Positions 8,042 to 59,585 of a stretch of DNA of 64,000 nt are shown piece by piece. Source of the DNA: Escherichia phage allfine; sequence record MN850633.1. One strand, 5' to 3'. The notes under the pieces were generated by a model. That model worked only from the letters and a program-made list of their open reading frames with translations, was not told where the DNA came from and ran no database searches. A program made the translations under genes and the position numbers. Every line of letters starts with the position of its first letter. Position 1 is the stretch's first letter.

Positions 8042-8117
8042 TGGAGAATCCGAAGGGACTCGAACCCTTATAAACCTGTTTTGCAGACAGGCACATAGCC
8101 ATTTCTGTCACGGATTC
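8042..8117 (-). tRNA. tRNA-Cys (GCA)
   Basis: Hand fold: acceptor GAAUCCG/CGGAUUC, anticodon stem CCUGU/ACAGG with loop CUGCAAA, T-loop UUCGAGU, encoded CCA. Confidence 0.7.
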
Positions 8118-8121
8118 AAAT

Positions 8122-8214
8122 TGGAGGAAGATACCAGACTTGAACTGGTACACCGATTTCTCAGCTACTGGCAGTTTAGCAAACTGCTCCCTTACCTTTT
8201 AGGGTTAATCTTCC
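8122..8214 (-). tRNA. tRNA-Ser (GCU), type II with long variable arm
   Basis: Acceptor GGAAGAU/AUCUUCC, anticodon loop UUGCUAA, T-arm ACCAG-UUCAAGU-CUGGU, 93 nt. Confidence 0.6.
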
Positions 8215-8215
8215 A

Positions 8216-8950
8216 TTATTTCTGTAATGCGCTCTTCATTTCTGGTGTTGCAATAGTGTCAATTACACCAGTTTTACAGGCATCATCAAACCAGTCTGGT
8301 AAGATACCTGCTAAGAACCCATTGATATTCGTTTTAAGGTACTCTGCAATAAGGGCAGCTTCTTCTTCAATCATCTGCACAACTTCATCTGCATAAGCTG
8401 TAATCTTTGAGATACCTTCATTAATCTTACTGACAGCTTGGTTAGCTAAATCAGAAACAGTATCAAGACCCTTGTCAATAGCGTCTTGTAAGTCACTTAA
8501 TACATCGTTAACACTCTCTAGTGTACTGTTAATCGTATCAATAGCTTTTTGACCATATTCTGTAGCAACACCCATAATACCACTGAACGGTGTACAACCA
8601 ACTTGTTCTCCTGCTGCACCCATAACATTGGAATATCCCTTTGCTACCTGCATACGTGATGAAAACTCATCAATAGACTTTTGACCGTAGTCTGTTAGGG
8701 TCTTAGTAGTTGCTGTAGTGCTTGTAAGGCTTGTTGTAAAGCTGTTTAGAAGGACTGTTGTAAGTCCAGCAGCAACAAGTTTCTCCTGCATTGTAGGGTC
8801 TGTTACAGAACTAATAGAGCTTACAAGTGATGTAGAAGCAGCTACGGTTCCACCGAGAACTGCTGCACCAGTAATAAGTGGGTTAGAAAACCCTTTACCG
8901 GTTTTTAAGAGATTAAAAATCTCCTTACCTTGTTCTGTCATCTCTTTCAT
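8216..8950 (-). CDS. hypothetical Ser/Thr-rich protein (about 244 aa from internal Met)
   Basis: ORF 8216-9013 in track; upstream 60 nt overlaps a tRNA, so start placed at Met 22 (8950); embedded inside tRNA array. Confidence 0.45.
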   Translation of the reverse strand: MKEMTEQGKEIFNLLKTGKGFSNPLITGAAVLGGTVAASTSLVSSISSVTDPTMQEKLVAAGLTTVLLNSFTTSLTSTTATTKTLTDYGQKSIDEFSSRMQVAKGYSNVMGAAGEQVGCTPFSGIMGVATEYGQKAIDTINSTLESVNDVLSDLQDAIDKGLDTVSDLANQAVSKINEGISKITAYADEVVQMIEEEAALIAEYLKTNINGFLAGILPDWFDDACKTGVIDTIATPEMKSALQK

Positions 8951-8969
8951 TAAGCACCTTTGAAATTGG

Positions 8970-9043
8970 TAGTCCAGTGGGATTTGAACCCTCTTCTCAT
9001 GTTTTTCAGACACGCGCTTTAACCATATAAGCTACTTGGACTA
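8970..9043 (-). tRNA. tRNA-Phe (GAA), imperfect fold
   Basis: T-arm GAGGG-UUCAAAU-CCCAC, acceptor UAGUCCA/UGGACUA, anticodon stem CGUGU/ACAUG loop CUGAAAA; D-arm register ambiguous. Confidence 0.5.
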
Positions 9044-9048
9044 TAAAT

Positions 9049-9124
9049 TGGGGTGACCTACGGGATTTGAACCCGTATAGACCATGTTCACAGCATGGGT
9101 CATTACCATTTATGATAAGGCCAC
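9049..9124 (-). tRNA. tRNA-His (GUG)
   Basis: Acceptor GUGGCCU/AGGUCAC, D-stem UCAU/AUGA, anticodon stem CCAUG/CAUGG loop CUGUGAA, T-arm ACGGG-UUCAAAU-CCCGU, CCA encoded. Confidence 0.8.
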
Positions 9125-9155
9125 ATTTAAGGACTCTCGTAAGAATCCTTAGAAG

Positions 9156-9231
9156 TGGCAGCGGCATAAGGATTTGAACCTTAATAAGACAGCTTCAGAG
9201 ACTGCTGCATTGCCAGTTATGCTATACCGCT
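9156..9231 (-). tRNA. tRNA-Gln (CUG)
   Basis: Acceptor AGCGGUA/UGCCGCU, D-stem GCAU/AUGC, anticodon loop CUCUGAA, T-arm UAAGG-UUCAAAU-CCUUA. Confidence 0.7.
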
Positions 9232-9236
9232 AAATT

Positions 9237-9315
9237 TGGTACTCCATATCGGATTCGAACCGATACATAACACAGATTTTAAGTCTGGCCTCTCTGCCAA
9301 TTGGAGTAATGGAGC
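9237..9315 (-). tRNA. tRNA-Leu (UAA)?, Leu-like D-loop AAUUGGCAGAG but short variable region
   Basis: T-arm AUCGG-UUCGAAU-CCGAU, acceptor GCUCCAU/AUGGAGU, anticodon loop CUUAAAA; atypical for a type II tRNA. Confidence 0.45.
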
Positions 9316-9317
9316 AT

Positions 9318-9392
9318 TGGCGGGGGATGTTGGAATTGAACCAACTTCTTCGATTTCAAAGACCGAGGTTTTAACCTTGTAAACTAATCCCC
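9318..9392 (-). tRNA. tRNA-Gln (UUG)
   Basis: Anticodon stem UCGGU/AUCGA loop CUUUGAA, T-arm GUUGG-UUCAAUU-CCAAC; acceptor pairing imperfect. Confidence 0.55.
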
Positions 9393-9401
9393 TTTAAATC
9401 T

Positions 9402-9959
9402 TTACTTTCTCAGTGGATGAATAAAGAATGCCAACATAACTCTTTCCCTTGAGAATGCTCTTTCTTCTGGGACAACACTTTTTAGTTTCCATCCAATATA
9501 AATTCTCCAGTAAAATTGTTTACCAAAGATTTTAATTGATGGGATAAAAGCGAATAATCCCCAAGCATTCCTGTTCCACATTAGGAGATAACCAGTCTGA
9601 TTATCTTCAGGGTTAGAACTTACGTTGATATTACCTTTCCACTTAGTAACATCTTTTACATCTCTTCCTAACACATGGTAAGAGAAGTTATAAGCTTTGT
9701 TTCTCCAGAGCCATCCAACTCTTTGCATGTAGACACCTAGTTTACCAATCCATCTAATATTAGCCCATCTTTTAACGTGACCTTCATCACCATCAATTGG
9801 GTTGTCATAGGTCTCCATCCATCTGAATCCAAAAGGTAGATGTCCTTTCTTCTCACTGTAGAATGGAACTACAAAAGGTGCTAAGATAACTGCTAAGATT
9901 GCTGCAAATGGCTCTAACAAAGCTAAGAAAATCCATGAAGCATACTTCAAATATCTCAT
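9402..9959 (-). CDS. hypothetical membrane protein (185 aa)
   Basis: ORF with strongly hydrophobic N-terminus (two predicted TM helices), Trp-rich; embedded in tRNA array. Confidence 0.45.
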   Translation of the reverse strand: MRYLKYASWIFLALLEPFAAILAVILAPFVVPFYSEKKGHLPFGFRWMETYDNPIDGDEGHVKRWANIRWIGKLGVYMQRVGWLWRNKAYNFSYHVLGRDVKDVTKWKGNINVSSNPEDNQTGYLLMWNRNAWGLFAFIPSIKIFGKQFYWRIYIGWKLKSVVPEERAFSRERVMLAFFIHPLRK

Positions 9960-9978
9960 CTAAATAGCCTCTTTAAAT

Positions 9979-10054
9979 TGGCGCAGGATAAGGGATTCGA
10001 ACCCCTATTAACAGCTTCGTAGACTGTTGCTCTATCCATTTGAACTAATCCTGC
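9979..10054 (-). tRNA. tRNA-Arg (ACG)
   Basis: Acceptor GCAGGAU/AUCCUGC, D-stem GUUC/GAGC, anticodon stem ACAGU/GCUGU loop CUACGAA, T-arm AGGGG-UUCGAAU-CCCUU, CCA. Confidence 0.8.
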
Positions 10055-10059
10055 AAAAT

Positions 10060-10137
10060 TGGTGTTCCAAGACGGATTCGAACCGTCACTAGTACAAGGT
10101 TTGAGCTTGCATCCTCTGCCAATTGGGATACTGGAAC
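10060..10137 (-). tRNA. tRNA-Leu (CAA)?, Leu-like D-loop, short variable region
   Basis: Acceptor GUUCCAG/UUGGAAC, anticodon stem GCAAG/CUUGU loop CUCAAAC, T-arm GACGG-UUCGAAU-CCGUC. Confidence 0.5.
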
Positions 10138-10138
10138 A

Positions 10139-10213
10139 TGGTACTCACTAAAGGACTTGAACCTTTTTCTTCATCTTGTAAGGGTGATGTTTTACCATAT
10201 AAACTAAGCGAGT
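10139..10213 (-). tRNA. tRNA-Val (UAC)
   Basis: Acceptor ACUCGCU/AGUGAGU, D-stem GUUU/AAAC, anticodon loop CUUACAA, T-arm AAAGG-UUCAAGU-CCUUU. Confidence 0.65.
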
Positions 10214-10306
10214 ATGAAAGAGGTCTGGAGTTGTGCCGCTAACTCAACTCCGTGGAATTTGTTACGGTCTTCAGTTGACTCAAAGCGGTCTTTCACTTGA
10301 CCTCTG
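10214..10306. ncRNA. structured non-tRNA element inside tRNA array (candidate small RNA)
   Basis: Terminal 7-bp pairing AGAGGUC/GACCUCU enclosing hairpin GGAGUUG...CAACUCC; no T-arm consensus; fills gap between tRNA-Val and tRNA-Thr. Confidence 0.3.
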
Positions 10307-10309
10307 AAT

Positions 10310-10386
10310 TGGTGCTGCTCACAGGACTCGAACCTGCATTTCCATCCTTACAAGGGATGTGTAATAGCCAATTATACGAAAGCAGC
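10310..10386 (-). tRNA. tRNA-Thr (UGU)
   Basis: Acceptor GCUGCUU/GAGCAGC, anticodon stem CAUCC/GGAUG loop CUUGUAA, T-arm GCAGG-UUCGAGU-CCUGU. Confidence 0.8.
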
Positions 10387-10392
10387 ATTGTT

Positions 10393-10467
10393 TGGAGCAT
10401 CCAGAGGGAATCGAACCCTCAACCTCAGTTTGGAAGACTGTAATTTTCCCGTTTAAACTATGGATGC
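10393..10467 (-). tRNA. tRNA-Gly (UCC)
   Basis: Acceptor GCAUCCA/UGGAUGC, D-stem GUUU/AAAU, anticodon loop CUUCCAA, T-arm GAGGG-UUCGAUU-CCCUC. Confidence 0.75.
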
Positions 10468-10473
10468 ACTAAT

Positions 10474-10549
10474 TGGTGGAGAAGCAGGGAATTGAACCCT
10501 GTACTTAAGTTTGCAAAACTTATGTTTTAACCATGTAAACTACATCCCC
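10474..10549 (-). tRNA. tRNA-Ala (UGC)
   Basis: Anticodon stem UAAGU/ACUUA loop UUUGCAA; acceptor carries the G3-U70 wobble pair characteristic of tRNA-Ala; T-arm CAGGG-UUCAAUU-CCCUG. Confidence 0.8.
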
Positions 10550-10555
10550 ATTGTT

Positions 10556-10631
10556 TGGTACAGGTGGAGGGAATTGAACCCATCGTCTTACTGATTAAGA
10601 GTCAGCCGCATAACCATTTTGCTACACCTGC
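10556..10631 (-). tRNA. tRNA-Lys (CUU)
   Basis: Acceptor GCAGGUG/CACCUGU, anticodon stem GCUGA/UCAGU loop CUCUUAA; paralogous to the tRNA at 11790-11865. Confidence 0.6.
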
Positions 10632-10638
10632 ATTAATT

Positions 10639-10716
10639 TGGTAGGAGACAAGGGATTCGAACCCTCAAACATCTCGTTCTAAGCGAGATAGGTTTACCAA
10701 TTACCGTCAATCTCCC
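10639..10716 (-). tRNA. tRNA-Leu (UAG)?, atypical
   Basis: Acceptor GGGAGAU/GUCUCCU, anticodon stem UCUCG/CGAGA loop CUUAGAA, T-arm GAGGG-UUCGAAU-CCCUU; D-arm irregular. Confidence 0.5.
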
Positions 10717-10975
10717 ATTAAATCTTTTTAGAGAACTTCTAAGAACCTAAGCAACAAGGTTCCACAACAAGCTGTAATAACCTTAGAAGCCCTCTAAAAA
10801 GACCTAAAAAGGTCTTTGCATAGTCTTGTTTAATCCGGTGACTAGAACCTTTGGAGAGCTTGATATTATCTCTTCTCCGTGACACCTACTAGGTGCTTTA
10901 CTGTGCGTGTACGACAATACACTAGGGATACCAAAGCAACATCCGAATGAAGCTTGGCTTTAAATCTTATTAGGC

Positions 10976-11061
10976 GGTAAGTAAAGGAGTCGAACCCTCA
11001 CCGTATCTCTACAGTGGCAACTGTTTTCAAGACAGTTTGGCTACCATTAGCCGCTACCTAC
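10976..11061 (-). tRNA. tRNA-Ser (UGA), type II
   Basis: Anticodon stem ACUGU/ACAGU loop CUUGAAA, long variable arm, acceptor GUAGGUA/UACUUAC; boundaries approximate. Confidence 0.6.
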
Positions 11062-11075
11062 CCCTAATAAGACTT

Positions 11076-11158
11076 TGGCATGGGACGGAGGAGTTGAACC
11101 ACTTTGAAACGGTTTTGGAGGCCGTTGCTCATGCCTTAGAGTCTTAACATCGTCCCAC
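11076..11158 (-). tRNA. tRNA-like, possible tRNA-Trp (CCA), atypical 5-prime half
   Basis: Acceptor GUGGGAC/GUCCCAU with encoded CCA, anticodon-like arm ACGGC-CUCCAAA-ACCGU, about 7 extra nt in D region. Confidence 0.4.
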
Positions 11159-11301
11159 ACTATAATTCGAAGCTTACCGTATTTTCACAACACTGTAAAG
11201 CCCCTTCTCAGATTATTTACATGTTCTGGAAAACATGAGATACAGACCACCTCCTTACACGGAGACCCGATAAGGTCGTCTAAGTAATCTGCTAACTAAA
11301 T

Positions 11302-11383
11302 TGGTCGAGGCGGCAGGACTCGAACCCGCATACTCCACTTACTCGGTTAACGGCGGTTTAGAAGACCGCTGAGATACGCCCCG
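11302..11383 (-). tRNA. tRNA-like, possible tRNA-Arg (UCU), lacks canonical D-arm
   Basis: Good T-arm GCGGG-UUCGAGU-CCUGC and acceptor CGGGGCG/CGCCUCG plus CCA; anticodon arm GCGGU-CUUCUAA-ACCGC directly after acceptor; 23-nt extra segment. Confidence 0.4.
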
Positions 11384-11631
11384 TAATTATCTTTAAAGAC
11401 TCTCTTAGAAAGCCCTTAAAGATGCCCACCTTATTAATCATACCGTGGGCTAGTACGCCAAATTCTTTGATGAGGGATTGGAAGACCTCACTGGTGTTTA
11501 GCCTATCAAGCTACTGCCAGAAAAACATTGTCGTTTGCATTTATTTTAAATTTGCAAAATAGACGCTACGCAACGAAAACTAAGGTTACTATAAAGTAGT
11601 CACATCTCAATGTCAACAACTTTATTGAAAT

Positions 11632-11707
11632 TGGTACTGGTAGGTGGAATCGAACCACCGATGTTCCCTTATCAGGGGAGTGTTATAACCTTCTTAACTA
11701 TACCAGC
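11632..11707 (-). tRNA. tRNA-Ile (GAU)
   Basis: Acceptor GCUGGUA/UACCAGU, D-stem GUUA/UAAC, anticodon loop CUGAUAA, T-arm GGUGG-UUCGAUU-CCACC. Confidence 0.75.
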
Positions 11708-11708
11708 T

Positions 11709-11785
11709 TGGAGGTTCAGATGGGAATCGAACCCACATTCATAGGGCTTATGAGACCCTTGCATTACCTTATCTGCGACTGAACC
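11709..11785 (-). tRNA. tRNA-Met (CAU), elongator-type acceptor
   Basis: Acceptor GGUUCAG/CUGAACC, anticodon stem AGGGU/GCCCU loop CUCAUAA, T-arm GUGGG-UUCGAUU-CCCAU. Confidence 0.75.
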
Positions 11786-11789
11786 ATAT

Positions 11790-11865
11790 TGGTAGAAGTG
11801 GAGGGATTCGAACCCATCGCCTGTCAGATTAAAAGTCTGCCGCATAACCATTTTGCTACACTTCC
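11790..11865 (-). tRNA. tRNA-Lys (UUU)
   Basis: Acceptor GGAAGUG/CACUUCU, anticodon loop CUUUUAA, D region identical to tRNA-Lys(CUU) paralog. Confidence 0.65.
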
Positions 11866-12122
11866 ATTAAATTACCTTTGTAGATAAGCTACCCAGACTT
11901 GCTTAAGGTCTGTAGCGATGTGCCTTGTTGGGTTTAAATCTAGAATTTACCCTTTCACCCTTTGTGGTCGCATACTCACAGGTAAGCTTAATAACTTATC
12001 TACAAAGATAATTACCAGACCGTTGTTTATCATCTTAAGTGCTACCATTACACCAACTCGACATCTGCCGAGTGAAGGAATCGAACCTTCGCCTTTTCTT
12101 TACCGGAGAAATAGATTGTTTA

Positions 12123-12152
12123 AGTTTTGCTGTAAACGGTCTTCTGTAAATT
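12123..12152. repeat. repeat motif TTGCTGTAA-N2-GGTCTTCTGTAAA, copy 1 of 4 in tRNA array
   Basis: Near-identical copies at about 12205-12232, 12596-12629 and 12763-12790; CCAGACC partner forms long-range inverted repeat with GGTCTTCTG. Confidence 0.5.
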
Positions 12153-12204
12153 TGTTGAGCCAGACCAAGTTTTAAATTTTCAAAATTAAATTGGCTTGAA
12201 ATTT

Positions 12205-12232
12205 CATACATTCTTGCTGTATTTGGTCTTCT
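12205..12232. repeat. repeat motif copy 2 (TTGCTGTATTTGGTCTTCTG)
   Basis: Shares core with copies at 12123, 12596, 12763; upstream partner CCAGACCAAG at about 12163. Confidence 0.45.
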
Positions 12233-12294
12233 GCTCCTTTAAAGAATACTCGTAAGAACTCTTTAAGGGAGGGGCTAAATAGCCCTCTCAAAAT

Positions 12295-12371
12295 TGGCGG
12301 CTACGATGAGACTTGAACTCACATCATCTCCCGTGACAGGGGAGTATTTTCTCCAGTTAAACTACATAGCC
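12295..12371 (-). tRNA. tRNA-Asp (GUC)
   Basis: Acceptor GGCUAUG/CGUAGCC, anticodon stem CUCCC/GGGAG loop CUGUCAC, T-arm GUGAG-UUCAAGU-CUCAU, CCA encoded. Confidence 0.85.
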
Positions 12372-12376
12372 TTTAT

Positions 12377-12464
12377 TGGTGTGCCGTGTAGGAGTCGAAC
12401 CTACCGAGTCTCAATGACAAGGGATTTACAGTCCCCACCGCTACCATCTACGGGATAACGACAC
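12377..12464 (-). tRNA. tRNA-Tyr (GUA), type II
   Basis: Acceptor GUGUCGU/ACGGCAC, anticodon stem GGGGA/UCCCU loop CUGUAAA, long variable arm, T-arm GUAGG-UUCGACU-CCUAC. Confidence 0.75.
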
Positions 12465-12476
12465 ATTTAAATTTTG

Positions 12477-12550
12477 CGGTTAGTCAGGGATTCGAACCCT
12501 GTGCCATTCGCTTAACAGGCGACCGCACATACCTTATGTGCTTCCTAACC
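12477..12550 (-). tRNA. tRNA-Asn (GUU)
   Basis: D-stem GCAC/GUGC, anticodon loop CUGUUAA, T-arm CAGGG-UUCGAAU-CCCUG; CCA not encoded. Confidence 0.75.
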
Positions 12551-12595
12551 TTAATACATTGCCAGACCGTGTTTTTCTTTTATCCGCAAAAAGTA

Positions 12596-12629
12596 GTTTG
12601 TTGCTGAATACGGTCTTCTGTAAATTTGG
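12596..12629. repeat. repeat motif copy 3 (TTGTTGCTGAATACGGTCTTCTGTAAATTTGG) with upstream CCAGACCG partner at about 12571
   Basis: Same core as 12123 and 12763 copies. Confidence 0.5.
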
Positions 12630-12703
12630 AGGCGGGTGCAGGAGTCGAACCTGCCGATACCATGCTAATGAGACATGTGAGACGCCCTTTCTCTATACCC
12701 GCA
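12627..12703 (-). tRNA. tRNA-Met or Ile2 (CAU)
   Basis: Anticodon stem CAUGU/GCAUG loop CUCAUUA, D-stem GAGA/UCUC, T-arm GCAGG-UUCGACU-CCUGC; position 1-72 mismatch in one register. Confidence 0.6.
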
Positions 12704-12762
12704 ATTCTTAATGACCAGACCAAATATCTTCTTTGTCCGATTTCGTGTCAGATGAGTAGATT

Positions 12763-12790
12763 AAGTTTGCTGTAATTGGTCTTCTGTCAA
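12763..12790. repeat. repeat motif copy 4 (TTGCTGTAATTGGTCTTCTGTCAAAA) with upstream CCAGACCAA partner at about 12714
   Basis: Same core as other copies; on minus strand reads TTGACAGAAGACC. Confidence 0.5.
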
Positions 12791-12793
12791 AAC

Positions 12794-12871
12794 TGGCGTT
12801 CCAGAAGGGATTTGAACCCTCAAATATCCACTTTGAAAGAGTGGTGACTTTACCATTTTGTCTACTGGAAC
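12794..12871 (-). tRNA. tRNA-Glu (UUC)
   Basis: Acceptor GUUCCAG/CUGGAAC, anticodon stem CCACU/AGUGG loop CUUUCAA, T-arm GAGGG-UUCAAAU-CCCUU, CCA. Confidence 0.8.
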
Positions 12872-12878
12872 ATTAATT

Positions 12879-12955
12879 TGGTCTCTGTTGGAGGACTTGA
12901 ACCTCCGGCCTTACCGCCCCAAACGGAACGCTCTACCAAGCTGAGCTAAACAGAG
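12879..12955 (-). tRNA. tRNA-Pro (UGG)
   Basis: Acceptor CUCUGUU/AACAGAG with C1-G72 typical of bacterial tRNA-Pro, D-stem GCUC/GAGC, anticodon loop UUUGGGG, T-arm GGAGG-UUCAAGU-CCUCC. Confidence 0.8.
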
Positions 12956-13072
12956 ATAAATTTTTCAAACTCTATGTAACCACTTTAACATTATTTTTTA
13001 GTGATTGTCAAGAACTTTTTTAAAATATCTTTCAGTATCTTAGAAAAGCTCTCGTTTCGTTTCTATGTAGAA

Positions 13073-13101
13073 CATATTAAAGGGTATTAAACACATTGTC
13101 A
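13073..13101 (-). promoter_or_regulatory. sigma70-like promoter TTGACA-N17-TAATAT with hairpin in spacer, facing tRNA array
   Basis: Minus strand reads GTATTGACAatgtgtttaatacccttTAATATG; 9-bp inverted repeat AAGGGTATT/AATACCCTT overlaps spacer; about 110 nt upstream of first tRNA. Confidence 0.5.
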
Positions 13102-13120
13102 ATACCCTTTTTAAAACTTT

Positions 13121-14536
13121 TTACCAGATGTAACGGTCAATCATTACTGCTTTGAGCATTACGCTGATTGGGTCAAACTTCTCACCACCAAGCAGAGCTT
13201 TTAAAGTGGCTGGAGAGAACCCTGATACCATTGCTACACCGTTATCCTTAACAGATACTTCGCAAGTACCATTACGGTTTGCTAAGTACCAGAATACCAG
13301 TTGTGGCATCTCATATCCAGCTTTTTTGTACTTACTCTGAATTGCTTCAAAGTTTGTACGACCGTTAGCTCCATCAACCTGATTGAACTCCATATCGGAG
13401 AAGATGATAAGCTTACTTGGCATATCTTTCTGAGTCAAGTTGTTTCTTTTACCTGTTTCAAGAATGCGGTCAAAAGCTGCTTGTAAGTTAGTTGAGCCAT
13501 ATTCAACGTGTCGCATCACCTGACGATGACGGTTTCGTAAATCACCACTCAGTTCGATGAAGTGAGGGTTTGTTGAGTAAACCATTAACTCATTCTTAAA
13601 GCAACCAGTATTGCGTTCTGCTACATACAAGGCAAGTGATACACCAATATCAAGGGCAGTGATTGAACCAAGATTCACCCAAGACATTGAGCTTGAAACA
13701 TCGGTCATACACAAGATGTTCTCACCTTCTGCCATCCAGTTTGGTAGTGCTTTCCACTGCTCATTGGCAACATCTGCATTACCATGCTTGATAGACTTAA
13801 TCACATCGTATGGGTAAACAGCACCAGCGTTAATCTTAGCCTCACCCTTTGAGAGTGATTCGATGTAAGCTTTGTAACGTTCTCCATCTTTACGGTTAAA
13901 GAGCTTTTGGTAACGTGCAGCAGCGAGTGAAGGAATCTTGCTGTAGTCAATCTTACCAAACTCATTAGCAGAGATTTTTTGCTCAACTGTATCAGATAGT
14001 GCAGACAACAGTGTGCGGTACTCTTTCTCACTCAAGTTGGCAAACTTGCAGAAACGTTTTATAAACTGCTTATGACGTGGTTTGACTCGTGGTAACCACT
14101 TAGCCGCCAAACCTGCTGTTGCAGGGTCTAGTAATGCTGCTTCTAGATGTTTGAAGGCATCTGTCTCGAAACGAGTACCTACGAAGATTTTGAAGTCATC
14201 AAAACGACCAAGTTCTGCAATCTTATCCATAATGCGAAGAACCTGCGTAGGCTCTAAAACTTTGTCTTCAATCGCTTGAAGTAAAACAGTTCTGAAGGCT
14301 TTACGCTCACCCATACCTTCTCGTACATCTCGCATATGAAGCAAAATACGAACTGCAACATCAACATCCTCACGCAAAGCTTTGTAGAACAGGTCTGGTA
14401 AGATTTCTACGTTGCTACGGCTTGAACCAGCAGCTTTGTAAAAGTCTACAAGAGCAGACATTGATGAAGTATGGTTTACAGCACCATTTTCAGTTCGACC
14501 TGCATGAAGGTGCGCATGTTTAAATAATTCGCTCAT
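13121..14536 (-). CDS. vWA-domain protein, possibly TROVE/Ro60-like (471 aa)
   Basis: MIDAS-type motif MTDVSSSM followed about 100 aa later by LIIFSDMEF beta strand (vWA fold) in C-terminal third; N-terminal 270 aa helical; co-directional and immediately upstream of tRNA/tRNA-like array. Confidence 0.5.
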   Translation of the reverse strand: MSELFKHAHLHAGRTENGAVNHTSSMSALVDFYKAAGSSRSNVEILPDLFYKALREDVDVAVRILLHMRDVREGMGERKAFRTVLLQAIEDKVLEPTQVLRIMDKIAELGRFDDFKIFVGTRFETDAFKHLEAALLDPATAGLAAKWLPRVKPRHKQFIKRFCKFANLSEKEYRTLLSALSDTVEQKISANEFGKIDYSKIPSLAAARYQKLFNRKDGERYKAYIESLSKGEAKINAGAVYPYDVIKSIKHGNADVANEQWKALPNWMAEGENILCMTDVSSSMSWVNLGSITALDIGVSLALYVAERNTGCFKNELMVYSTNPHFIELSGDLRNRHRQVMRHVEYGSTNLQAAFDRILETGKRNNLTQKDMPSKLIIFSDMEFNQVDGANGRTNFEAIQSKYKKAGYEMPQLVFWYLANRNGTCEVSVKDNGVAMVSGFSPATLKALLGGEKFDPISVMLKAVMIDRYIW

Positions 14537-58784: not shown

Positions 58785-59585
58785 TTAGTGCAGTTGCTCA
58801 GCATACTCTTTTTCAGCCATAGCTGAGATTTGCTTCACAAAATCATCACCGAAGTTAATGCGTAGTTTCTCTTCAATGATTGAAGCACCAATGTTCACCA
58901 AAACATCATTGATTGCTTGCATACTGACGCCACCAGTCATCTCTTCAATGAACTCAATACTCACACCCATCATCTGTGAAAGTTGGATTAGTGCAACAAT
59001 ATTCATCATCGTAGAGATAGCTGGAATCATCAGTGCAACTTTCACCTGAAGTGGTTCTATATCAGCTACAGAGTCATTTTCAACAGCTTCTTCCAAAGAC
59101 TCTTTAGTTTGCTGTATAATCTCTTTGATTCGTGGGTTTAATTCTTCTACGCCCCAATCAAGTTTTTCATATCGTGAAAGTTTCTCTTCCATACGCTTCT
59201 CAAGAACAGCCATAATAGCACTCGTTGATGAGATAAGCATATCAATAATGAAATCAGTGTCCTTAGTCAGCAACAGTTCCTTATCTTCGTCTGACATCCT
59301 GATATAGTCATTCTTTTGCATTTCATAAAAAATGAACTCAGCAAGTGCATCAACACCAACCGCAATAGATGCCAGAGCAAGTGTAGTGTCTGTCAACATC
59401 ATATTAACCTGTTCTGCAAAAGCACCGTTATCAGACTTGTCTTCAGGCAAGTTATAGCTTGCAGGCATAAACTGTTCTGTGTAGTTGTTGCCACGAAGAA
59501 TCATAGCCATGCTTTCTACGGCATTGATTAAGAACGCTTCGTCAATACCTTTTTCTTCAAGCATCTTTTCTACATCGATATTCAT
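58785..59585 (-). CDS. hypothetical protein (266 aa)
   Basis: ORF. Confidence 0.5.
   Translation of the reverse strand: MNIDVEKMLEEKGIDEAFLINAVESMAMILRGNNYTEQFMPASYNLPEDKSDNGAFAEQVNMMLTDTTLALASIAVGVDALAEFIFYEMQKNDYIRMSDEDKELLLTKDTDFIIDMLISSTSAIMAVLEKRMEEKLSRYEKLDWGVEELNPRIKEIIQQTKESLEEAVENDSVADIEPLQVKVALMIPAISTMMNIVALIQLSQMMGVSIEFIEEMTGGVSMQAINDVLVNIGASIIEEKLRINFGDDFVKQISAMAEKEYAEQLH

Follow-up and report, generated by a model that had tools for sequence, protein, structure and literature searches.

What occupies the parts of a phage tRNA array that hold no tRNA is the question raised by Escherichia phage allfine (record MN850633.1), of which a stretch of 64,000 nucleotides (nt) was analysed here (the window). 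A first-pass annotation of this stretch, made from its sequence, had described between positions 10214 and 12095 several gaps with neither a tRNA nor a credible open reading frame (ORF) but with stable hairpins, and had suggested that these might be small stable RNAs, molecules akin to Y RNA, remnants of tRNAs or signals for processing. Our analysis points to four elements, Y-A to Y-D (coordinates in Table 1), as Y-RNA-like partners of a divergent phage Ro60 protein encoded beside the array, Y-A having a tRNA-like module as in bacterial YrlA RNA. The probability of this reading is put at roughly 70%.

ARAGORN found 25 tRNA genes at 8042-12955, every one on the minus strand, and the elements are therefore read on that strand. 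The 3.2 kb surrounding them show 94-97% identity to many Felix O1-like phages of the genus Felixounavirus. The gaps without a called tRNA are 10214-10309, 10717-10972, 11063-11631 and 11866-12294, and two more, 12551-12626 and 12704-12793, lie beyond the range annotated before; ARAGORN made no tRNA call in the gaps, Y-A included. ORFs on the array strand within the gaps reach 48 amino acids (aa) at most, and an ORF of 85 aa at 11918-12175 runs antisense to it, on the plus strand. Such small ORFs were rejected as genes, being short, antisense or frame-broken. Folding z-scores, computed against dinucleotide shuffles, were -2.4 to -5.4 for the five gaps described earlier, so that their description as tRNA-free, ORF-free and stably folded was borne out. 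Because the interval stopped at 12095, it covered Y-A only in part and left out Y-B, Y-C and Y-D as well as the gene of the protein.

The 5' and 3' ends pair in all four Y-like RNAs on folding, and a 28-nt block (repeat family D7) is common to the four spacers. Y-C and Y-D each make up a complete inter-tRNA spacer. In Y-A, the closing helix is 7 bp long (with flanks, 12143-12135 paired with 12024-12015) and is followed by the single-stranded motif UACAGCAA at 12134-12127. The insert then holds, in order, a V (anticodon-arm-like) hairpin (12113-12094), a T arm (12090-12074), an acceptor-like hairpin (12073-12056) and a D arm (12053-12039). The T arm is perfect on the minus strand (GAAGG-UUCGAUU-CCUUC), and the acceptor-like hairpin has 7 bp and is closed by a loop (ACUCGGC-AGAU-GUCGAGU). 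The T-arm-like hairpin and the second hairpin after it, which had been placed at 12056-12095, are thus exactly as described. The order V, T, acceptor-like stem (AS), D is that which defines bacterial YrlA (PMC4201824). Y-A is not a tRNA by the usual criteria: the Rfam tRNA model aligns with positions 7-64 only, at 22 bits (threshold 29), and the acceptor is loop-closed. With this YrlA-type core and a Ro60-like gene nearby, the element at 12056-12095 has strong support as "Y RNA-like"; the other gaps for which the term had been offered showed no membership of this family.

Y-D scores 43 bits with the covariance model R1, a value to be read with the presence of Y-D in the seed, and the same model found no further member across the 64-kb window. 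A near-perfect 5' half-motif, AAAGAGAUUAUACAGCAAAC, at 59065-59128 on the minus strand was rejected as a chance match (17 bits, E 0.17): it lies inside a 266-aa ORF and has a poor helix. In the record of Escherichia phage REP5, a 131-nt "tRNA-Thr (GGT)" is annotated across Y-B and Y-A (locus L171, 807-937, about 12194-12064 of the window). Other records label the Y-A/Y-B region "tRNA-OTHER", "tRNA pseudogene" or antisense "hypothetical protein". Such GenBank labels are probably mis-annotated Y-like RNAs.

The gene of the 471-aa protein adjoins the array directly upstream in the direction of transcription. Y-A to Y-D all lie 340-1400 nt downstream of its stop codon on the same strand, with tRNAs in between. 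Since phmmer of the protein against PDB gave nothing significant, structure prediction was needed. The AlphaFold2 model, built from 46 homologs, has a predicted local distance difference test score (pLDDT) of 88 and a predicted template modelling score (pTM) of 0.88. It is laid out as a helical (HEAT-repeat) ring domain followed by a C-terminal von Willebrand factor A (vWA) domain with the MIDAS (metal ion-dependent adhesion site) motif DVSSSM. The MIDAS residues D279, S281 and S283 (DxSxS) are invariant across the 46 homologs. When the model was compared with PDB by Foldseek, the top 11 matches were all Ro60 over about the full length (E 4e-9 to 5e-7, template modelling score 0.49-0.66), from Thermus phage phiLo, Xenopus, Deinococcus (Rsr) and human; the matches that follow are isolated vWA domains. 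Pfam returned only DUF2828 and DUF7788, with no match to the TROVE domain (PF05731). On the predicted structure, the protein is a divergent Ro60-type protein that resembles Ro60 only at the level of the fold. Homologs are found in 709 phage records, and those of mycobacteriophages carry the annotation "Ro-like RNA binding protein". The ortholog in another Felixounavirus, gp130 of Bas63, is encoded upstream of the tRNA genes; a 2024 preprint noted its resemblance to Ro60 and found that it is needed to overcome the "ppl" defence of the host (PMC11482910). On Y RNAs, its authors went no further than to speculate that the annotated tRNAs might include some, and identified none (PMC11482910).

RNA family beside DUF2828 genes

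Elements of the same design are present beside DUF2828 genes of other phages. The signature of the family is 5'-A-G-N5, N-U, [A/U]CAGCAA, a variable insert and N5'-C-U-G-3', and the motif stands at a constant 8 nt from the outer G. The scanner pattern was G-N7-[AT]CAGCA with a 6-bp complementary strand at most 260 nt away and a UG or AG tail. Over 82 loci and the window, its matches numbered 110 on the gene strand and 6 on the opposite one, compared with 3.8 in shuffles. In an independent replication with 80 loci from bacterial and archaeal genome assemblies, fetched after the first scan, the corresponding numbers were 136, 5 and 6.4, and 61 of the 80 loci were positive. The strand-specific enrichment is about 20-fold or more in both sets.

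The elements keep close to the gene. One or more elements lie between 2 kb upstream and 2.5 kb downstream of the gene at 46 of 75 metagenomic loci from non-Felix phages, and the density is 0.24 per kb within these limits versus 0.016 per kb farther out. No tRNA lies within 3 kb at 28 of the 46 positive loci, and for this reason the family is linked to the DUF2828 gene and not to tRNAs. Over all loci, at least one element is found at 127 of 165, usually in one to four copies with a median length of 77 nt, and a member with a strict T arm is present at 24 of the 165.

The helix sequences differ almost completely between loci. The six pairs imposed by the scanner say nothing on pairing itself. 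Pair -1:+1 was not imposed, and in 77 distinct cores it is A:U in 59, U:A in 12 and unpaired in 6. The variants with 3' "AG" carry U at -1. In addition, the U preceding the motif and the A following it are conserved. RNAalifold, applied to 36 natural short members, returned exactly the 7-bp helix and nothing else, with compensatory changes at six of the seven pairs. With 13 tRNA-like members from distant phages, it recovered the closing helix, the T arm, the acceptor-like hairpin and the D arm. In this set, compensatory changes occur at 19 of the 24 pairs, and the sequences of the T loop and D loop are conserved.

Klebsiella phage FBKp34 belongs to another subfamily, and its protein is 52% identical. 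The DUF2828 gene again lies ahead of a tRNA array, and the 480 nt between gene and array hold three elements, which share the motif and differ in their helix sequences; one of them carries a T arm, a 7-bp acceptor hairpin and a D arm. Three elements lie directly upstream of the gene in Listeria phage VAfA18 and two in Campylobacter phage F365. Three lie directly downstream of it in Staphylococcus phage S-CoN_Ph13. The Mycobacterium phages Kingsolomon and Acquire49 have three downstream of the gene, one of them tRNA-like. The family thus spans phages of Gram-negative, Gram-positive and mycobacterial hosts.

Two of these loci show further features. In FBKp34 (L002, 8003-8116), a gene annotated as a 114-nt "tRNA-Asp" (Rfam tRNA 47.7 bits) has an extra hairpin, AACUUCU-UAG-AGAAGUU, followed by UUACAGCA. 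Both sit between the D arm and the anticodon arm, and the rest of the tRNA is complete, with a CCA end. This is a Y-type helix and motif inserted in a tRNA, a circular permutation of the YrlA-like design. In Listeria phage vB_Liva_VAfA18 (L088, 1427-1978 and 5700-7019), a match to ROOL RNA (RF03087, 89.8 bits, E 4e-17, gathering score 99.1) lies among tRNAs about 1 kb upstream of the DUF2828 gene, and a putative RtcB-type tRNA-splicing ligase is encoded 1.2 kb downstream. This locus is an RNA-centred gene cluster. Apart from that ROOL match, Rfam 15 returned for the 12 related loci scanned only tRNAs and chance matches (MIR473, snoRNAs, and tmRNA fragments over tRNAs).

Alternative explanations and proposed mechanism

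Several points weigh against Y-A to Y-D being Y RNAs of a Ro60-like protein. The canonical Ro-binding motifs, GGUCCGA of animals and GNCGAAN0-1G of bacteria, are absent from the Y-like RNAs. Searches with the Rfam Y_RNA and YrlA families gave no match at E<=1 in 6 kb, at E<=10 in 311 nt or at the gathering score in eight related loci, the presence of the YrlA model in the library being unconfirmed. The thermodynamic stability of the Y-like RNAs in the window is unexceptional (z -0.8 to -2.4), and about a quarter of the DUF2828 loci lack an element when the strict pattern is applied. That the RNAs would be transcribed along with the tRNAs, set free as tRNA ends are processed and bound by the protein is read from sequence, and so is the biological role. 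Finally, in 13 relatives an element ends at most 30 nt upstream of the DUF2828 start codon and abuts the Shine-Dalgarno sequence. With regard to the bacterial motif, a lone GGCGAAGG in Y-A (12093-12086) was considered and rejected: it overlaps the T stem and reads GGAGAAGG or GAGAGAAGG in relatives, so that it is not conserved.

The position before the start codon is what would be expected if the elements were cis operators or elements of the untranslated region (UTR) of the Ro-like gene, acting in autoregulation, with the array copies as by-products or decoys. The 13 loci (for example ...UAACCUGAAGGAAAAUAAAAUG) favour this view, and Vibrio phage ValKK3, which keeps the 5' half-site only, in the 5' UTR, agrees with it. 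In the window, however, all four copies lie downstream of the stop codon, 340-1400 nt off, and the leader of the Ro-like gene has no copy. Furthermore, most loci have two to four copies, and often one of the copies in a genome bears a tRNA-like module that is elaborate and covaries, something that would be superfluous for an operator. A purely cis-acting role is therefore considered unlikely. Cis and trans roles are not mutually exclusive. Because of the 13 relatives, translational autoregulation by the protein is a plausible additional or alternative role for the copies close to start codons. Minimal copies of this kind were seen at L011 1765-1796, L041 5907-5946, L067 5879-5943 and L089 2938-3016. 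In ValKK3 (L087, 2950-3000), AAAGACAUUUUACAGCAAUUAA stands just past a promoter in the 5' UTR of the DUF2828 gene, as a half-site with no complementary 3' strand.

Alternatively, the elements might be processing or punctuation signals of the tRNA precursor (guides for RNase E, RNase III or RNase P), or else pseudogenes of tRNAs that remain from turnover of the array. Their location between tRNAs, the T and D arms of Y-A and the 131-nt "tRNA-Thr" of one record are in keeping with this, and several other spacers of the array look like long processing stems. On the other hand, a nearby tRNA is missing at 28 of the 46 positive metagenomic loci, the linkage follows the DUF2828 gene and its strand, and the same signature recurs in phages of Gram-positive, Gram-negative and mycobacterial hosts, which have different RNases. 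As for pseudogenes, the permuted T-AS-D order with its loop-closed acceptor is upheld by compensatory changes in distant phages and does not decay. The label "tRNA remnant", offered earlier for the element at 12056-12095, is accordingly wrong. Taken together, signals or pseudogenes seem very improbable as an explanation of Y-A to Y-D.

A further possibility is that the hairpins arose by chance or are generic folding of AT-rich spacers, and have no specific function. The unremarkable z-scores of Y-A, Y-B and Y-D and promoter-like and terminator-like totals no higher in the region than in shuffles would agree with it. It is refuted for Y-A to Y-D by the strand-specific enrichment in two independent locus sets, the invariant motif and the heavy covariation, and could apply only to parts of 11160-11304.

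If Y-A to Y-D are Y-RNA-like partners of the Ro-like protein, the following mechanism might be proposed. The promoters at about 13100 and 13000 would drive transcription of the Y RNAs together with that of the tRNAs, and the Y RNAs would be released when RNase P and 3' processing enzymes excise the flanking tRNAs. The ring of the Ro-like protein would bind them via the helix and the ACAGCAA junction, and the resulting ribonucleoprotein (RNP) would act in RNA metabolism during infection, in RNA quality control, RNA repair or anti-defence. Such a role is suggested by the Listeria locus, with its RtcB ligase and tRNAs, and by the genetics of Bas63. The tRNA-like module may tether or decoy factors that recognise tRNA.

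A wider proposal can be made, for which we see the balance as about even. The [A/U]CAGCAA-helix RNAs would form a class of non-coding RNA that is very widespread in phages and had gone unrecognised. They would serve as obligate RNA subunit in the DUF2828 "Ro-like" RNPs across Caudoviricetes, with a recognition code different from that of canonical Y RNAs and with a tRNA-mimic member. The RNP, and not the protein alone, would then counter ppl-type defences, or repair or decoy attacks that target tRNA.

Other elements of the array

The features of the region are listed in Table 1.

Table 1. Y-like RNAs, other elements, promoters and the adjoining protein gene in the window
Feature	Position	Strand	Characteristics	Location	Support
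Y-A	12016..12141	-	YrlA-like RNA, 126 nt	upstream of the 11866-12015 element	
Y-B	12161..12228	-	short Y-like RNA, internal UUUCAA/UUGAAA hairpin	between tRNA-Asp and Y-A	scanner, covariance model, fold
Y-C	12563..12615	-	short Y-like RNA, motif variant UUCAGCAA	whole tRNA-Met/tRNA-Asn spacer	scanner, covariance model, fold
Y-D	12716..12781	-	short Y-like RNA, helix GACCAAU/AUUUGGUC, motif UACAGCAA, 3' CUG	whole tRNA-Glu/tRNA-Met spacer	scanner, covariance model
96-nt element	10214..10309	-		between tRNA-Thr and tRNA-Val	z -3.8; 0 of 200 shuffles as stable
Spacer with terminal hairpin	10717..10972	-	central part of ~110 nt near-invariant across three genera; terminal hairpin ~27 bp		z -3.1; 1 compensatory pair
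Degenerate tRNA-like gene, Trp-CCA-like	11076..11158	-	anticodon loop CCA, imperfect T arm, encoded 3' GCCA		fold
Conserved spacer, three hairpins	11160..11304	-	92-98% conserved across three genera		z -2.4; 1 compensatory pair
Atypical tRNA-Arg(UCU)-like gene	11305..11383	-	long variable arm		Rfam tRNA 31.7 bits; no ARAGORN call
Promoter, then conserved structured leader	11384..11631	-	leader of ~200 nt	before the Arg-like tRNA	z -3.8; one hairpin with 3 compensatory pairs
Long-stem element	11866..12015	-	closing stem of ~25 bp around ~100 nt; inner hairpin with conserved loop CUUWAGCAA		z -5.4
Internal promoter	11616-11588	-	TTGACA-17-TATAGT; best of region		score 11/12
Two sigma-70-like promoters	13102-13074, 13011-12982	-	perfect TTGACA	between Ro-like gene and first tRNA	kept in SUSP2 and Moogle
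Ro60-like protein gene	13121..14536	-	471 aa; Pfam DUF2828 and DUF7788		PHROG 850 "RNA-binding protein"

In the element at 10214-10309, a 7-bp terminal helix (AGAGGUC/GACCUCU) surrounds a long irregular hairpin, exactly as the first-pass annotation had it. The element holds three GACC segments like the strand of the Y stem (AAAGACCGC, GAAGACCGU and CCAGACCUC). It is 95-98% identical in Suspvirus and Mooglevirus, conserved as the tRNAs are, and offers no covariation. Alignment with relatives, which had been proposed as a check on all the gaps, revealed covariation in Y-A, in 11866-12015 and in one hairpin of the 11384-11631 leader, a single compensatory pair each in 10717-10972 and 11160-11304, and none in this element. 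The Rfam scan, proposed together with it, returned only tRNAs and chance matches in the region, and neither a Y RNA nor YrlA.

In the long-stem element at 11866-12015, six compensatory pairs distinguish the Felixounavirus version from those of Suspvirus and Mooglevirus. A hairpin in the 11384-11631 leader (11488-11467, minus strand) has the stem UGAGG/CCUCA, which becomes CAGGG/CCCUG in Mooglevirus. Its loop, UCUUCCAAYC, is nearly constant and resembles an anticodon loop (CU-UCC-AA). In 10717-10972, a 37-aa frame is broken by a 1-nt indel in relatives.

Two degenerate tRNA-like genes lie between the gaps described earlier, as that description implied. That at 11076-11158 is called by neither ARAGORN nor Rfam; at the homologous site in SUSP2 the T arm is intact. 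For that at 11305-11383, the gene in the equivalent position of Sf14 and Moogle (by gene order; an alignment was not found) is annotated as tRNA-Arg TCT.

The elements at 10214, 10717, 11160, 11384 and 11866 had no homolog by nhmmer in the loci outside Ounavirinae. None of the five has an Rfam match or shows membership of the Y-like family, and their conservation is confined to Ounavirinae. The tRNA cluster of phage T4 contains small stable RNAs that are not tRNAs, "species 1 and 2" (rnaC, rnaD), which are released by tRNA processing. By description, these are the nearest analogy for the 10214, 10717 and 11866 elements. To judge from their sequence and predicted folds, the gap elements may be stable RNAs comparable to those of the T4 cluster, or processing or regulatory elements.

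Both promoters in front of the first tRNA have a perfect -35 element. The conserved A/T-rich block with perfect TTGACA, a -35/UP block, forms a three-copy repeat, D13 (11609-11630, 13004-13025 and 13095-13116, minus strand), which looks like a phage promoter family that might drive the tRNA/Y-RNA operon in at least two segments. No canonical terminator was found on the minus strand inside the gaps. A second three-copy repeat, D11 (9126-9150, 11392-11416 and 12239-12263, minus strand; e.g. UUAAAGAGUUCUUACGAGUAUUCUUUAA), forms hairpins that are kept in Suspvirus and Mooglevirus. Two copies abut a tRNA or tRNA-like gene and one lies about 30 nt downstream of tRNA-Asp; the hairpin may be a processing site. 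Two protein genes on the same strand, 8216-9013 (DUF7217, 265 aa) and 9402-9959 (DUF7338, 185 aa, with hydrophobic segments), are embedded in the array and divide it into three blocks.

Comparison with known Ro60-Y RNA systems

Particles of Ro60 and Y RNA occur in animals and in some bacteria; what they do in bacteria and in phages is as yet little understood. The present analysis supplies concrete candidate RNA partners, with coordinates and a code of sequence and structure, for a Ro-like protein family. More than 700 sequenced phages encode a member, model and therapeutic phages among them (Felix O1, Listeria P100-like phages and Campylobacter Fletchervirus), and in one relative the protein is already tied genetically to escape from a bacterial defence system. 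The analysis also accounts for some of the non-tRNA sequence that makes phage tRNA arrays puzzling, flags mis-annotations ("tRNA-OTHER", the 131-nt "tRNA-Thr" and antisense "hypothetical proteins") and provides a seed for a new RNA family model. These RNAs were not described in the literature searched on DUF2828, Ro-like proteins, phage YrlA and Bas63.

A ToxI-like repeat of a type III antitoxin was considered as another known system and rejected on the sequences: the copies do not form a tandem series of identical units, and the fold of the protein is not that of a nuclease.

Metazoan Y RNAs are likewise small RNAs with a terminal stem, the presumed protein-binding site, and a variable internal module. 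Unlike them, the present family has neither the helix with a bulged C nor GGUCCGA, nor features of Pol III transcription or La binding, whereas metazoan Y RNAs have no tRNA-like module.

The closest resemblance is to YrlA and YrlB with Rsr (PMC4201824). In both cases the RNA is encoded next to a Ro60-type gene, on that gene's strand, and is closed by pairing between its two ends; after the 5' strand comes a single-stranded motif that is purine-rich and conserved. One RNA per locus has V, T, acceptor-like and D arms in exactly the order of YrlA and is accompanied by shorter RNAs without the full module, and some loci have a context of RtcB and tRNAs. The bacterial operon rsr-yrlBA-rtcBA (PMC4201824, PMC7790460) is echoed by the Listeria phage locus with its RtcB-type ligase and tRNAs. 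The differences lie in the partner, which is a DUF2828 protein without a Pfam TROVE match, in the motif, which is [A/U]CAGCAA 8 nt from the outer G instead of GNCGAAN0-1G, and in the 3' C-U-G signature. In addition, the RNAs of the window sit within a 25-gene tRNA array and have no Rfam match. Since the canonical motif is absent, Rfam gives no match and the protein is Ro60-like only by its fold, the family is not filed as a member of YrlA; its sequence and predicted structure suggest a relative of the Ro60-Y RNA systems, set apart from YrlA proper.

Two phage systems can be compared directly. Thermus phage phiLo (PMC12135203) has a protein of the Ro60 fold, which is the best Foldseek match (9kop), with two adjacent Y-like RNAs, Yrl1 and Yrl2, and its authors propose that the RNA machinery of the host is hijacked (PMC12135203). 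Its Ro60, however, is a recognisable TROVE protein, and its Yrl RNAs have a CGAA motif and lie upstream of the gene, with no tRNA array. Bas63 (PMC11482910) belongs to the same genus as allfine, and its gp130 is the orthologous protein, encoded upstream of tRNA genes and active against ppl. The preprint pointed to annotated tRNAs as possible Y RNAs, whereas the RNAs described here are the spacers between tRNAs.

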